A stretch of DNA of 12,454 nt, taken from UHGV virus genome UHGV-0041831, one strand, 5' to 3'. Position 1 is the first letter of the stretch; the number at the start of each line of letters is the position of its first letter. Shown in pieces: positions 3,461-8,215 of this stretch. The position numbers and the translations under genes were made by a program. The notes under the pieces are model-generated. The model was not told where the DNA came from. It ran no database searches and worked only from the letters and a program-made list of their open reading frames with translations. The DNA is from a virus.

Positions 3461-3994
3461 TTATCTGTCGATTCCCCAGCACGCCAGCGCGCTCTCCTGG
3501 TCACGACGGGATACCTGACCATAACAGTTATTTGAGCGGACACGGCAGTCTCTGCCACCGTCCTTAATCCACCAGCGAATCGCCTCACACGCTCCCCTGC
3601 GATCACCTGCATTAATTCGTTTATAAAACGTCGACGGGAAACACTTACCGGGACCAATGTTGTACGGACAGAATGACGCGATCCCCGCTTTCTGGGGTTC
3701 ACTCAATGGCACTCTGATGTTTTTCTCCACCCATGCCAGCGCCTTATCACGCTCAATGGCGTTAACCCGGTCGCATTTTTCCTTCGACAACTTCATGCCC
3801 GGAACGACAGGTTTGCCATCCACCAGGATGGCACCGCGGCAGATGGTCCAGATACCCGCGCCATCACGGTATGCCGTGGTGTGGTTACCTTCCTTTTCAT
3901 CCAGAAACTGGTCGAGAATGTCAGGCGCAGGCGCACCAGCGGCAATCAGCGCCAGAACGGCAGCCGACAGGCCGTATCTGATTTTTGCGTTCAT
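3461..3994 (-). CDS. Phage endolysin, T4-lysozyme-like muramidase with N-terminal signal-anchor (SAR-type)
   Basis: 177-aa ORF MNAKIRYGLSAAVLALIAAGAPA... followed by E-x8-D-x5-T (EGNHTTAYRDGAGIWT), the catalytic spacing of T4-type lysozymes. The N-terminal hydrophobic, Ala/Gly-rich segment has no Cys, consistent with a SAR domain. A pinholin partner lies upstream. Confidence 0.88.
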   Translation of the reverse strand: MNAKIRYGLSAAVLALIAAGAPAPDILDQFLDEKEGNHTTAYRDGAGIWTICRGAILVDGKPVVPGMKLSKEKCDRVNAIERDKALAWVEKNIRVPLSEPQKAGIASFCPYNIGPGKCFPSTFYKRINAGDRRGACEAIRWWIKDGGRDCRVRSNNCYGQVSRRDQESALACWGIDR

Positions 3995-5052: not shown

Positions 5053-6906
5053 TTATGATGATGCCGGTGCATTTATCTCCAGCACCAGACTTTCTATCTC
5101 AACGCCATACGCTGCATTTTTGGTAATATCCGTCAGCGTCAGCGCATTCAGCCCCAGTGTCAGACTGTCTTTTATGACCTGGAATGCCGGGCCAGCCACT
5201 CCATTCAGTTTCGGAGTAACCGTGGCACTGCCGGCGGTGAACACCAGCTCCAGCGTCTGCCAGTCGTTACTGTAATTCCCGAACTCGCCCAACTTTGTGT
5301 TTCCTGCTTTCTTGTGATGCATCAGATTCAGTTTGCCGTCTGTGGTCTGGGTGAAGAACGACATCAGGAACGGGTTACCAGTCCCGGTCATCGCCACGAC
5401 GTCAGGTAACGCTACATCGGTATACAGATAAATTCCCAGACCGAACTGGTTGTTGGTCAGTGCGCCTGACAGTCGAAACTTACAGCTCAGTCTGCCACCC
5501 CGTGTCAGCAGGGAGACTGCGTCATCCACCGGGCGCGTCAGGGACCAGGCTTTATTGCTCTGCTTGGTGATCTTAAATACACCATCTGACAACTGAATTC
5601 CGCCATTCTTAATGCTCCAGCCCTGCGCAGCAGCGTCTCCGGCTGTCGGCAACAGGGAGATTGTGCGTATGGATGCATCTTCAGACGGCCCCGATGGCGT
5701 GTCGCCGCCGGGCGAGGGTTTGATTTCCGGTGCCTTACCACTAATGAAGGCTAAGGTGCGACCGGCTACGTTCAGAATAGCAGTTGCCATACGATCGGGA
5801 ATAATGCCACGACGCGCCCATGAGCTGAAATGCGTCGGGCGATTTGATGATACCCAGTTTTTGTTCGTTCGGGATGCCGAACCGTAATAACCAGACCCGG
5901 CAATATCAGGATCTTCTGACGGGTTGTTTGTCGGTGTATTAACTCCGCTACCATCGGTCATAAAGGGAACAAAATAAATCTGCTGGGATTCTTTACCTTT
6001 ATATGCACCATATACCACTTCATATTGCGTACCGTGTTCTTGTTTCCACGCGTATGTCGTGTCGCCACAAATCCAGGGGACTGATGCCGGACTTCCACCG
6101 TGACACTGCGCCGCCAGCCCGGCAAGGTCAGCACGGAACTGCTGTACCATTGCAAGAAATGCTGCTGGCTGCTGGGCGTAACTGGCATTCGTCATATCGA
6201 ATTCCCCCTGCATCCAGCATATCGCCAGCAAAACGTTTTTCGGGTTTTTCTGCAATGCTGCCTTCGTGCGGAAAAGCAGATCCTGATATAACGGCTTACC
6301 CACTCCCCAGCGAGCCGAATCCTGACTGGCTCCCGTGGACTCGCTGAATGTCCCCTCCGTGCCCTGGGTGAATGCCGAACCACCACGACAGCATGGTACC
6401 AGCAGGATCCCCGCATTATTAGGGATATACGGAAGCAGTTTTTTGGCAATATGTAAGCCCTGTCCGACACAGCCGTACTGCCCTTTGCTCAGGTCAGCCC
6501 GGGGATGGTTAATCGTACTCATATCCTGAACATCATGCAGACAATGGTCAGCAGGAATGATGTCGTTAAATACGCATACTTCACCACCGGGAGTCACTGT
6601 GTTACGACGGGCCAGTTGCTTAATGCGCGGATGGGGCGCATCGTATGAATCCGGAAGCGGAAGCCCTTCACCGTAAGCCATGGCATTGGATTGCCCGGCC
6701 AGTACGATGACGTAGTACCACTCCGGCTCAGTTGCACCACTGACGACCACATCACCTTCTGCTGCAATCGCCTGCATCAGGGTATAAGGGGTTATGGCCA
6801 CCGGACTACCAAACGGCTGCCAGCCCTCCTTCAGTTTTTGTGTCAGTCGTTTCGCAAGGTCTGACGGCGATGCCGCCCTGACCACGTCATAGTGTTTAAA
6901 TGCCAT
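5053..6906 (-). CDS. Prophage NanS-p-like sialate O-acetylesterase (SGNH/DUF303 esterase plus C-terminal domain)
   Basis: 617-aa ORF with a strong GGGAGG Shine-Dalgarno. N-terminal block VIVLAGQSNAMAYGEG carries the GQSN esterase motif. Size, domain layout and position upstream of the holin match the NanS-p/YjhS-like genes that follow stx in Stx phages, as recalled. Confidence 0.85.
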   Translation of the reverse strand: MAFKHYDVVRAASPSDLAKRLTQKLKEGWQPFGSPVAITPYTLMQAIAAEGDVVVSGATEPEWYYVIVLAGQSNAMAYGEGLPLPDSYDAPHPRIKQLARRNTVTPGGEVCVFNDIIPADHCLHDVQDMSTINHPRADLSKGQYGCVGQGLHIAKKLLPYIPNNAGILLVPCCRGGSAFTQGTEGTFSESTGASQDSARWGVGKPLYQDLLFRTKAALQKNPKNVLLAICWMQGEFDMTNASYAQQPAAFLAMVQQFRADLAGLAAQCHGGSPASVPWICGDTTYAWKQEHGTQYEVVYGAYKGKESQQIYFVPFMTDGSGVNTPTNNPSEDPDIAGSGYYGSASRTNKNWVSSNRPTHFSSWARRGIIPDRMATAILNVAGRTLAFISGKAPEIKPSPGGDTPSGPSEDASIRTISLLPTAGDAAAQGWSIKNGGIQLSDGVFKITKQSNKAWSLTRPVDDAVSLLTRGGRLSCKFRLSGALTNNQFGLGIYLYTDVALPDVVAMTGTGNPFLMSFFTQTTDGKLNLMHHKKAGNTKLGEFGNYSNDWQTLELVFTAGSATVTPKLNGVAGPAFQVIKDSLTLGLNALTLTDITKNAAYGVEIESLVLEINAPASS

Positions 6907-7059
6907 GAATCCTCCCGGGCGGGATAATGTTGTGAGTCAGATAAGGAGCAGGCTGAAGTCCGGAAGTTACAGGACAATGGCAGAAGGGAGACTACAGCCC
7001 GCAATTCGAAAAAGACCGCGCAGTTGCGCAGAGTGATTACTATGGGGTATTATTCGCCA

Positions 7060-7128
7060 GCTGAAATATTACTTCACGTTTTATTGTTTATTCCTTGCCG
7101 CCCGCGTCTCCCAGCGCGGGCTTTTTTT
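7060..7128 (+). ncRNA. Candidate plus-strand short transcript (about 70 nt) upstream of NanS-p
   Basis: Sigma70-like promoter (-35 TTGCGC 7024-7029, 18-bp spacer, -10 TATTAT 7048-7053) followed by a strong plus-orientation intrinsic terminator (stem GCCCGCG/CGCGGGC at 7100-7121, T7 at 7122-7128). No plus-strand CDS explains this terminator. Confidence 0.25.
7100..7128 (+). terminator. Rho-independent terminator, plus orientation
   Basis: GCCCGCG-TCTCCCAG-CGCGGGC followed by TTTTTTT. Confidence 0.6.
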
Positions 7129-7149
7129 GTCCATAAGAAAGCCCCTCCG

Positions 7150-7206
7150 NNNNNNNNNNNNNNNNNNNNNNNNNNNNNNNNNNNNNNNNNNNNNNNNNNN
7201 NNNNNN
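7150..7206. other. Assembly gap (57 N) flanked by identical 28-mers
   Basis: 7122-7149 and 7207-7234 are both TTTTTTTGTCCATAAGAAAGCCCCTCCG. This looks like an unmerged contig-end overlap rather than real sequence. Confidence 0.8.
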
Positions 7207-7217
7207 TTTTTTTGTCC

Positions 7218-7393
7218 ATAAGAAAGCCCCTCCGGAGAGGGGCTAAAGCCGCGTATCTGTATCATCATGCACATGGTGCCGGGTGCCTCCCGGTGAGTTC
7301 AGCCCGGTGCCACTAAACCCGCGTCATTCTCGTTTTGATAATCAGAGATTATACCGTCACCAGTCGCCCCTCCGCTCAGGGGGATTCACCATG
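7218..7393 (-). ncRNA. Tandem unit A: candidate structured small RNA
   Basis: Minus-strand order: promoter-like TTGACA (7432-7437) and TTGTTAAAAAAA, then a 5' block CATGGTGAATCCCCCTGAGCGGAGGGGC, a variable core, a 3' block TCACCGGGAGGCACCCGGCACCATG, then the terminator. 5' CATGGTG can pair with 3' CACCATG; internal hairpins CCCCT/AGGGG and CCGGG/CCCGG. No conserved ORF (frames differ between units A and B). Confidence 0.35.
7225..7244 (-). terminator. Intrinsic terminator of tandem unit A (minus orientation)
   Basis: Perfect 8-bp stem AGCCCCTC/GAGGGGCT with a 4-nt loop, followed on the minus strand by TTCTTATGG. Confidence 0.5.
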
Positions 7394-7495
7394 CGAAATT
7401 TTTTTAACAAATGCCCAGTCTGACAGGCAACTGTCAACTTACTGAATTGTGAGCAACATAGCATTTAACGGGGAACCTGTTTTCTGCAGTAAAAA

Positions 7496-7517
7496 GGCCC
7501 ACCGGAGCGGATGGGCC
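7496..7517 (-). terminator. Intrinsic terminator between tandem units (minus orientation)
   Basis: Minus strand AGGCCCA-TCCGCTCCGG-TGGGCCT followed by TTTTTAC. Confidence 0.45.
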
Positions 7518-7703
7518 TGGAAGGATAGCGGTCATGTGATGCCGGTTTCCCGGTAACTCAGCACCGGTATCTGAGTCAACGTTTTCTCTACTGGGTCATT
7601 TCCGATACGCCCTGCCTGCTGACAGGCTTTCATCACATCTGAAAATATAGCACCCTGACTGATACTGTAGTACCTAAGGTTCCAGAAACTGTGATGTATC
7701 CGG

Positions 7704-7861
7704 CACAGAAAAGCCCCTCCGGAGAGGGGCTGGAGAGTGGCGCTATGTGCCATTGCATGGTGCCGGGTGCCTCCCGGTGAATTCAGTACCAGCACCTGAA
7801 TCCGCGATTATCCCATATACCTACTCGCTGATTGCCCCTCCGCACAGGGGGATTCACCATG
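7704..7861 (-). ncRNA. Tandem unit B: candidate structured small RNA (diverged paralogue of unit A)
   Basis: Same architecture as unit A: TTGACT (7900-7905) and TTGTTAAAAG, then 5' block CATGGTGAATCCCCCTGTGCGGAGGGGC (7834-7861), variable core, 3' block TCACCGGGAGGCACCCGGCACCATG (7756-7780), then terminator. The conserved blocks are near-identical to unit A while the core differs. Confidence 0.35.
7712..7731 (-). terminator. Intrinsic terminator of tandem unit B (minus orientation)
   Basis: Same 8-bp stem AGCCCCTC/GAGGGGCT as unit A, followed on the minus strand by TTTTCTGTG. Confidence 0.55.
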
Positions 7862-7934
7862 CCAGTTTCTTTTAACAAACTCCCCGCAAACCAGACAACA
7901 GTCAACCGCCTGAATTGTGAGACATTTAAAAAAA

Positions 7935-7950
7935 GCCCGCAAAAGCGAGC
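7935..7950 (-). terminator. Intrinsic terminator immediately after the tRNA cluster (minus orientation)
   Basis: Minus strand GCTCGC-TTTT-GCGGGC (6-bp stem including one G-U pair) followed by TTTTTTT. Confidence 0.55.
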
Positions 7951-7965
7951 CAGGGAAAATAAGTG

Positions 7966-8042
7966 TGGCGCGTTGTACTGGATTCGAACCAGTGACCGAT
8001 TGCTTAGAAGGCAATTGCTCTGTCCGGCTGAGCTAACAACGC
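7966..8042 (-). tRNA. argO: tRNA-Arg (anticodon UCU), phage-encoded
   Basis: Manual cloverleaf: acceptor GCGTTGT/ACAACGC, D-arm GCTC...GAGC, anticodon stem ATTGC/GCAAT with loop CTTCTAA (anticodon TCT), T-arm ACTGG-TTCGAAT-CCAGT, discriminator G, encoded CCA. Symbol given by analogy with the Stx-phage tRNA cluster. Confidence 0.8.
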
Positions 8043-8055
8043 AGGATACAGATAA

Positions 8056-8132
8056 TGGACCGCCTTCGGGGACCCGAACTCCGCGCAACCAGCTTCGAAA
8101 GCTGGCGCTCTTTCCTGATGAGCTAATGGCGG
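8056..8132 (-). tRNA. argN: tRNA-Arg-like (anticodon UCG) with non-canonical features; possibly degenerate
   Basis: Manual fold: D-arm GCTC-ATCAGGAAA-GAGC, perfect anticodon stem CCAGC/GCTGG with loop TTTCGAA (anticodon TCG), encoded CCA. But the acceptor stem starts with C and has one mismatch, the T-stem has an A-C mismatch, and the T-loop is TTCGGGT (G at the usual A58 position). Confidence 0.55.
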
Positions 8133-8139
8133 TATGTGA

Positions 8140-8215
8140 TGGTGGCCCTTGCTGGATTTGAACCAGCGACCTGGCGATTATGAGTCGCTCGCTCTCACCA
8201 CTGAGCTAAAGGGCC
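8140..8215 (-). tRNA. ileZ: tRNA with CAU anticodon (Ile2/lysidine type or Met)
   Basis: Manual cloverleaf: acceptor GGCCCTT/AAGGGCC, D-arm GCTC-AGTGGTGA-GAGC, anticodon loop CTCATAA (CAT), T-arm GCTGG-TTCAAAT-CCAGC, discriminator A, encoded CCA. Symbol by analogy with the Stx-phage ileZ-argN-argO cluster. Confidence 0.75.

Follow-up and report, generated by a model that had tools for sequence, protein, structure and literature searches.

What occupies the toxin site of a lambdoid prophage that carries no Shiga toxin genes? The viral genome UHGV-0041831, whose whole stretch of 12,454 nucleotides (nt) we call the window, is an Escherichia coli lambdoid prophage of this kind. Between its tRNA cluster and a NanS-p-type esterase gene, at what an initial annotation took to be the stx-equivalent locus, two tandem, diverged noncoding units had been described. 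We find that these two, units A and B, are members of Rfam STnc100, an already catalogued small RNA (sRNA) family that is here in its usual place. A third, diverged relative, unit C, lies between them. Our favoured reading, which we regard as likely, is that B, C and A are three tandem, independently transcribed, Hfq-associated, trans-acting sRNA genes of the STnc100 family. Units A and B themselves are essentially known; unit C, a candidate convergent partner, predicted transcript boundaries and a predicted pseudoknot are what is new here.

Units A and B are STnc100-family sRNA genes

We compared both units with the Rfam covariance model RF02076 ('Gammaproteobacterial sRNA STnc100'), which has a gathering score of 47 bits. 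Each aligned to the whole 206-position model, unit A with 165.4 bits (E 5e-38, 7423..7214) and unit B with 136.3 bits (E 1e-30, 7891..7701). Because both match one covariance model at such E values, their likeness is far above chance. A core-only covariance model (R1; 114 positions and 26 pairs, built on 30 diverse copies) scored them at 91.6 and 97.4 bits, respectively. The initial annotation had left the family unnamed and offered paralogous phage small RNAs as its first option; the match far above threshold bears this out, as do the expressed, Hfq-bound homologues described below. The parts of the two genes are listed here, with P0 as the closing helix, P1, P3 and P4 as the helices within it, and X and X' as the strands of a long-range pairing.

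7216..7394, minus strand: unit A, STnc100-family sRNA gene, ~180 nt; P0 7394-7387 with 7278-7271; P1 7382-7367; X 7363-7358; P3 7320-7295, with X' in its loop at 7309-7304; P4 7293-7279; linker; terminator 7244-7225
7703..7862, minus strand: unit B, STnc100-family sRNA gene, ~160 nt; P0 7862-7855 with 7762-7755; P1 7850-7835; X 7832-7827; P3 7803-7779, with X' in its loop at 7793-7788; P4 7777-7763; linker; terminator 7731-7712, then a U-rich tail

Reading the minus strand and aligning A with B recovered every element first listed for them. TTGAC(A/T) and TTTGTTAAAA stand upstream of both. A common 5' block, CATGGTGAATCCCCCTG(A/T)GCGGAGGGGC, spans 7393-7365 in A and 7861-7833 in B, and a common 3' block reads TCACCGGGAGGCACCCGGCACCATG; the variable core between these blocks is not alignable. 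Both units end in the identical terminator hairpin AGCCCCTC-TCCG-GAGGGGCT (7244-7225 in A, 7731-7712 in B). The minimum free energy (MFE) fold of unit B reproduces the family architecture. That of unit A, computed from the single sequence, does not, as the terminator shares CCCCU/AGGGG with P1 and mispairs; given the comparative evidence, we treat this as a folding artefact. Published 'STnc_100' quantitative PCR primers match unit B exactly, and STnc_100 has been detected in outer-membrane vesicles of Shiga toxin-producing E. coli (PMC12370729).

A third, diverged copy lies between A and B

The proposal of two tandem units was right about A and B, which lie on the minus strand where first placed, but not about their number: a diverged copy at 7662..7489 makes three.

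7489..7638, minus strand: unit C, diverged STnc100/PasD-like sRNA gene, ~150 nt, between A and B; P0 7638-7631 with 7541-7534 (AUGUGAUG/CAUCACAU); P1 7627-7614 (GCCUG-UCAG-CAGGC); X 7608-7602; P3 7577-7555, with X' at 7567-7561; P4 7554-7541 (CCGG-GAAA-CCGG); terminator 7518-7495; extended -10 TGCTATATT at 7652-7644

A permissive search of 6850-8000 with the Rfam STnc100 model gave unit C 30.1 bits (E 2e-4, 7662..7489). R1, run with filters off, gave it 28.9 bits (E 7e-6); on the same scale PasD2, an sRNA of enteropathogenic E. coli (EPEC), scores 36.4 bits and EcOnc27 scores 93.8 bits. The Rfam score is under the gathering score, and we therefore describe unit C as a diverged relative and not as a formal Rfam member. 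Its MFE fold has the family architecture (z = -2.6), and each of its helices differs from those of A and B by compensatory changes. The closing helix is AUGUGAUG/CAUCACAU in C versus GCAUGGUG/CACCAUGC in A and B, P1 is GCCUG/CAGGC versus CCCCU/AGGGG, and P4 is CCGG-GAAA-CCGG versus CCGGG-AGGCA-CCCGG. Judged by sequence and predicted fold, unit C is a real relative.

Unit C occurs in 673 of 5426 complete E. coli genomes, in two sequence variants, and is annotated in none of them; one third of the cluster thus escapes standard annotation. Another prophage trio, beside iraM in strain 4/2-1 (L171 2808-3385), consists of a new variant, a unit C variant and a unit-B-like copy, so a set of three with a C-type unit at its centre recurs, its neighbours exchanged. 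The C variant of that trio is 91% identical to ours and keeps all helices with another P1 (UCUGCC-GGAA-GGCGGA). A loop change in it converts a U-G of the long-range pairing to U-A.

Covariation points to a conserved pseudoknotted core

We gathered further copies by exact-match scans, using the P1 block for species-representative genomes and the P4 block for viral contigs. Copies came from Escherichia, Enterobacter, Klebsiella, Citrobacter, Kosakonia, Kluyvera, Pantoea, Erwinia, Superficieibacter, Atlantibacter, Franconibacter, Phytobacter and other genera. In an alignment of 30 diverse Enterobacterales cores (A3), 7 of the 8 pairs of P0 and likewise 7 of the 8 pairs of P3 are changed on both sides. 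Versions of P0 include CAUGGUG/CACCAUG, CAGAUG/CAUCUG, GCGGUG/CACCGC, GGUGAUG/CAUCACC and GCUAUG/CAUAGC; the CATGGTG/CACCATG helix that the initial annotation had drawn from two copies is thus backed by covariation. Across the nested helices, 82.8% of alignment cells are paired, compared with 71.4 +/- 0.9% after shuffling (none of 500 shuffles as high) and 41-50% with slid partners. P1 (GAAUCCCCCUGNGCGGAGGGGC) and P4 (CCGGGAGGCACCCGG) are near-invariant across genera in the same set, an invariance partly due to the use of those blocks as exact-match search keys. Sequences retrieved through either block also keep the other one, and both helices occur in compensatory versions in unit C and PasD2.

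These P0 versions also bear on whether the units encode small peptides from the AUG of CAUGGUG (MVNPP...), which we consider extremely improbable. The predicted 5' end carries this AUG, much as in a leaderless message, and some STnc100 copies of strain EDL933 carry ribosome footprints (STnc100_10, ribosomal coverage value 3.2; PMC5331693). The frames, however, are as different as first described: unit A reads MVNPPERRGDW* (11 codons) and unit B reads MVNPPVRRGNQRVGIWDNRGFRCWY* (MVNPPVRRGNQ..., 25 codons), diverging after 5 residues, and unit C has AUGUGAUGA, in which a stop codon follows the AUG at once. The AUG is not conserved outside Escherichia; other genera read GCGGUG, CAGAUG, GGUGAUG, GCUAUG or GGAACG there, changing together with the 3' strand of the helix. 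Since the AUG is replaced along with its pairing partner, a conserved peptide is excluded, and the earlier argument for a function in RNA and not in protein stands.

A further pairing joins two parts of the core. Segment X, 6-7 nt long and starting 3-5 nt past P1, is complementary to the loop of P3. The X/X' strings in the window are CUGGUG/CACCGG in A, AUCAGC/GCUGGU in B and GUAUCGG/CCGGUGC in C; among homologues, PasD2 has AAUGAUC/GAUCAUU and EcOnc27 has CUGGUG/UACCAG. At least five contiguous X/P3-loop pairs are possible in 90% of 102 unique cores (mean 6.4). The pairing score was 15.1, compared with 10.7 +/- 0.27 when loops were exchanged between sequences (0 of 300 exchanges). Restricting the comparison to the 52 distinct paired strings gave 14.9 versus 10.2 +/- 0.33 in permuted sets (0 of 500). 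Shuffling each sequence's own loop gave 9.3, and a neighbouring segment gave 8.5. Counted column by column on a MAFFT alignment, the pairing reaches 39.6%, a low value that reflects register shifts of 1-2 nt between sequences. Because of this drift we used a permutation test that does not depend on register and that optimises the observed and the control sets in the same way.

As X lies outside P3 and its partner within the P3 loop, the pairing would form a pseudoknot, or else an alternative fold to the top of P3. The structure line of Rfam STnc100 (that line itself, as distinct from the seed annotation) contains no X/P3-loop pairing, and the family model seems to leave the conserved pseudoknot out. 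A pseudoknotted core conserved in many genera gives this family, which has no established function, a concrete structural hypothesis that can be tested.

Putative promoters and predicted transcript boundaries

Units A and B each have a promoter-like region at a matching distance from P0.

7398..7437, minus strand: unit A promoter-like region; TTGACA 7437-7432; TTGCCT 7430-7425; 18-nt spacer; TGTTAAAAA 7409-7401
7866..7905, minus strand: unit B promoter-like region; TTGACT 7905-7900; TTGTCT 7898-7893; 18-nt spacer including extended -10 TGT; TAAAAG (TGTTAAAAG 7877-7869)

The promoter-like stretch of unit A differs by a few substitutions from the sequence that precedes EcOnc27 in VT2-Sakai. Copies in many genera have a sigma-70-type promoter (TTGAC-N17-TAnnnT) placed for a start at the first base of P0, and chromatin immunoprecipitation with exonuclease treatment found RpoD at Salmonella STnc100 copies (PMC10794520). 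For PasD2, RNA sequencing and Northern blotting put the 5' end at the G of GCAUGGUG and the 3' end at the terminator U-tract (PMC8550237 table S6). By homology with PasD2, we predict starts near 7394 for A, 7862 for B and 7638 for C, with each transcript running to its own terminator. With these starts, the Rfam model takes in ~30 nt of promoter, in agreement with a published comment that EcOnc27 only 'partially overlaps' what is annotated as STnc100 (PMC12711010).

Two observations concern the region upstream of these starts. A conserved motif, CTCACAATTCAG, stands at 7440-7455 and 7908-7922 on the minus strand, before the TTGAC box of A, B, EcOnc27 and some Enterobacter copies. A regulator may bind there; we saw no convincing match to a known operator, and a CRP-like site in it, judged by eye, was dropped as too weak. 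Separately, the changes at +90 (T/C) and +103 (T deletion) associated with haemolytic uraemic syndrome (HUS; PMC12711010) map to TTTGTTAAAAAAATTT (VT2-Sakai, L169 ~3503-3517). Counted from the end of stx2B, and uncertain by 1-2 nt, this is the extended -10/discriminator of the EcOnc27 promoter, outside the mature RNA if its 5' end is PasD2-like. Features overlapping EcOnc27/STnc100 were among the HUS predictors in a machine-learning study that statistically linked variants of EcOnc27/STnc100 to O157 clinical outcome (PMC12711010). Given this link, true transcript boundaries and the fold are useful for interpreting such associations.

Relatives of the trio and how it may act

The Stx2-phage copy of STnc100 is known as EcOnc27 in strain Sakai and as sRNA103 in EDL933 (PMC4104026, PMC7873438, PMC12711010). 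EcOnc27 was recovered by Hfq crosslinking (crosslinking and analysis of cDNA, CRAC), is Northern-positive and forms a 'dyad' with AsxR, an anti-sRNA convergent with it; at least 8 Sakai prophages carry such dyads, placed after the late promoter and before the lysis genes (PMC4104026, PMC7873438). Overexpression of sRNA103 raises fimZ and espA transcripts (PMC12711010). EDL933 transcribes 11 STnc100 copies, of which STnc100_4 is Northern-positive (PMC5331693). PasD1 and PasD2 of EPEC E2348/69, homologues of EcOnc13, are abundant, Northern-validated RNAs of 172-173 nt that have many partners in RIL-seq (ligation and sequencing of interacting RNAs), with the seed in the 3' linker (PMC8550237). 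They have been described as structural relatives of STnc100 (bioRxiv 10.64898/2026.05.13.724894).

The promoter region and 5' part of EcOnc27 agree with those of unit A almost base for base, and it shares the position between the moron site and the esterase gene, the convergence with another sRNA, the terminator style and the core architecture. Unlike in VT2-Sakai, the phage here lacks stx and has three units in place of stx2AB and one unit, and the variable stretch and 3' linker of the window units differ from those of EcOnc27. The PasD RNAs are ~172 nt long and start at GCAUGGUG; they resemble the trio in the closing helix, P1, P3 and the pseudoknot, and, in E2348/69, in their position between Q and the esterase gene. 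They differ in that PasD2 has low similarity (41 bits in Rfam, 36.4 bits in R1), P4 is degenerate, the copies are reported as dispersed and not tandem, and the PasD seed, UGUGAG, is missing from the linkers of A, B and C. We therefore rejected an assignment of the units to PasD, with which they have the scaffold alone in common; unit C in particular would be a separate diverged lineage.

On our favoured reading, the order on the minus strand is B, C, A, at a 'moron' site that has the Q/tRNA region on one side and the esterase and lysis genes on the other. Each gene would have a sigma-70-type promoter with an extended -10 and a start at the first base of the closing helix. The transcript would begin with a structured core of ~105-125 nt, made of P0, near-invariant P1, a variable stretch, P3 and near-invariant P4, in which the segment past P1 pairs with the P3 loop; a variable single-stranded linker and an intrinsic terminator would follow. 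By analogy with EcOnc27/sRNA103 and PasD1/PasD2, we expect the RNAs to be made in the lysogen and bound by Hfq. They would most likely pair in trans with host and prophage mRNAs through the 3' linker, perhaps also through the variable stretch. Targeting through variable segments would give each paralogue different targets, and the conserved core may serve as a stable 5' scaffold that protects the 5' end.

Several points weigh against this reading. A strict sigma-70 consensus scan listed no promoter for the units, and those of A and B are not strong consensus promoters; our assignment therefore draws on homology, on position and on extended -10 motifs. Both A and B end in a short U-tail with interruptions (UUUCUUAU, UUUUCUGU), a weak basis for classical Hfq binding, and pasD1 and pasD2 RNA levels are barely altered in an hfq mutant (PMC8550237 table S2). 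The evidence on expression, Hfq and targets stems from homologues. The literature has established no direct target or mechanism for any STnc100 member, and the fimZ and espA effects come from overexpression, with pairing only predicted. Finally, the near-invariant P1 and P4, the pseudoknot and terminator-less arrays in Pantoea exceed what a plain Hfq-dependent sRNA needs and hint at a function of the core itself.

That last point leads to an alternative that we hold possible yet doubtful: the pseudoknotted core would itself be functional, as a protein- or ligand-binding, decoy or sponge, catalytic or switching RNA, with base pairing by the tail secondary or absent. P1 and P4 stay near-invariant across genera while P0 and P3 covary freely, and the pseudoknot is kept even in diverged unit C and PasD2. 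Three Pantoea loci (L009, from the Pantoea sp. App145 plasmid, L021 and L023) have 3-4 cores with 10-40 nt between closing helices. These cores stand head to tail at 120-150 nt, some with no intervening terminator, as a co-transcribed array would. One copy in Kosakonia and its relatives sits at what looks like a core-genome locus, beside a ~680-amino-acid M3-peptidase-like open reading frame (ORF), which, from its sequence and not a Pfam scan, we take to be dcp. The weak dependence of pasD levels on hfq fits a functional core as well.

Other evidence tells against it. No partner protein gene is conserved, the neighbours varying among esterase, IraM, lysozyme, holin and the dcp-like ORF. The invariance of P1 and P4 stems in part from how the copies were collected, and unit C and PasD2 persist with quite different P1 and P4 sequences. 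Homologues, moreover, were recovered with Hfq and in RIL-seq chimeras, with the seed outside the core. Tentatively, and with no more confidence than we give a functional core, the trio could be described as three specificity variants of one pseudoknotted RNA module found in lambdoid late regions across Enterobacterales.

The Kosakonia-type copy deserves separate mention. In Kosakonia/Enterobacter relatives (L012, L014, L022, L024, L027, L029, L039, L041-L043) it is well conserved, with P0 GGUGAUG/CAUCACC, and a short-chain dehydrogenase gene adjoins it. This setting suggests a core-genome, non-prophage location, in which case the family would not be strictly phage-borne.

The locus and a possible role in cis

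The trio lies among the following genes.

10665-9976: Q gene
9314-8265: methyltransferase ORF
7966..8215, minus strand: phage tRNA cluster with anticodons CAT (tRNA-Ile per the CE10 annotation), TCG (Arg) and TCT (Arg)
5053..6906, minus strand: SASA-family (NanS-p type) carbohydrate esterase gene, downstream of the sRNA cluster, from its ORF and the annotation of the identical CE10 locus

The window thus reads Q, methyltransferase, three tRNAs (confirmed by scan), sRNA units, SASA esterase and holin. In CE10, the annotated order is Q, a small ORF, DNA methyltransferase, tRNA-Ile/Arg/Arg, the units, SASA esterase, holin, YdfR and lysozyme. VT2-Sakai has Q, three tRNAs, stx2A, stx2B, STnc100 (207.7 bits), AsxR on the opposite strand, SASA esterase and holin. 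The stx-equivalent placement proposed for the units, from tRNA cluster to NanS-p, is therefore the very slot that holds stx2AB and EcOnc27 there. We found late-region placement between Q and the lysis genes in the window, CE10, VT2-Sakai, E2348/69, strain 4/2-1 and other genera. At Pantoea, Kluyvera, Phytobacter and Enterobacter loci, the units adjoin NinG/Q-like, lysozyme or holin genes.

Lambda PR'-6S RNA/tR' and StxS, which are short late-promoter transcripts, and the HK022 put RNAs are likewise small structured transcripts or elements, found in late or early operons of lambdoid phages. They work in cis on RNA polymerase from a place right at the promoter they serve, or are products of PR' termination. 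The window units differ in being far from Q and multi-copy, with promoter-like elements and terminators of their own, and are not known to share sequence with these elements.

A role in cis is nonetheless conceivable for the trio, if improbable. The units could be duplicated late-promoter/Q-utilisation modules, the second option of the initial annotation, or a stack of terminators and stable structures that keeps read-through away from the esterase and lysis genes until Q-modified polymerase arrives. All three terminators are oriented with late transcription, between Q and the lysis genes, and the same placement recurs in many lambdoid prophages (PMC7873438). Set against this, a late-promoter/Q-utilisation module comes directly after the Q gene, with promoter, Q-binding element and tR'. 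A methyltransferase gene and three tRNA genes separate the units from Q, ~2.1-2.8 kb away, and this distance with its intervening genes means that they are not the PR'/qut region. What is conserved is RNA pairing, through compensatory changes that are not expected of DNA-level promoter or Q-binding modules. A promoter-like element also precedes each unit, and in uninduced lysogens the homologues build up as discrete sRNAs (PMC8550237, PMC5331693). On position and RNA-level covariation we rejected late-promoter/qut duplicates; an insulating effect of the terminators could arise as a by-product of the sRNA genes.

The locus is widespread. Positions 7207-7965 (759 bp) are 100% identical in CE10, APEC O18, AR_0013 and many others, and at least 80% of this stretch, which holds the whole trio, occurs in 346 of the 5426 complete E. 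coli genomes. Of the 5426, 2869 have one or more related copies, at a median of 2 and a maximum of 13 places per genome. Relatives of the units also appear in 284 phage records, mostly Stx2 phages, one of which already carries an STnc100 annotation.

A convergent sRNA candidate

An sRNA candidate on the opposite strand faces the trio.

6947..7128, plus strand: convergent sRNA candidate, by homology to an EPEC RIL-seq candidate; terminator GCCCGCGTCTCCCAGCGCGGGC plus T7 at 7100-7128

Its terminator stands back to back with that of unit A, and it is antisense to the 5' untranslated region of the esterase gene. The stretch is ~94% identical to the EPEC RIL-seq sRNA candidate E2348C_1409.E2348C_1408.IGR (NC_011601 1444797-1444978), with the enterohaemorrhagic E. 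coli homologues EcOnc08/21/42, and occupies the position held by AsxR in VT2-Sakai. We considered AsxR and AgvB as the convergent partner and rejected both: neither RF02703 nor RF02702 matched in the window up to E = 5, a search that found AsxR at 88 bits in VT2-Sakai, and the partner is homologous instead to the intergenic-region (IGR) sRNA of the EcOnc08/21/42 group. An OmrA-B match at the candidate (25 bits, E 0.03) involves mainly the terminator and was disregarded.

Published AsxR/AgvB dyads follow the same plan, with one co-directional and one convergent sRNA in the interval from the late promoter to the lysis genes (PMC4104026, PMC7873438). AsxR and AgvB themselves, unlike the window units, are 51-60 nt long, with a ~42-nt conserved 3' region and no structured core. 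With three co-directional STnc100-type genes and one convergent sRNA, the window would hold an extended version of the published 'dyad'. A stx-less prophage with such a set at the toxin site underlines this site as a hotspot for sRNA cassettes.

Just downstream of the unit A terminator, the window has 57 N at 7150-7206 and a duplicated 28-mer (7122-7149 = 7207-7234) that overlaps the 3' arm of that terminator. As these 85 extra positions are missing from the otherwise identical CE10 sequence, we take them as an artefact of assembly or scaffolding, probably from contigs joined at the repeated terminator sequence.

In prophage PP6 of E2348/69 (L170 2575-2742), a unit-B-like copy has its 5' part disrupted beside an ISEc13 transposase gene, and the adjoining convergent IGR sRNA is intact.

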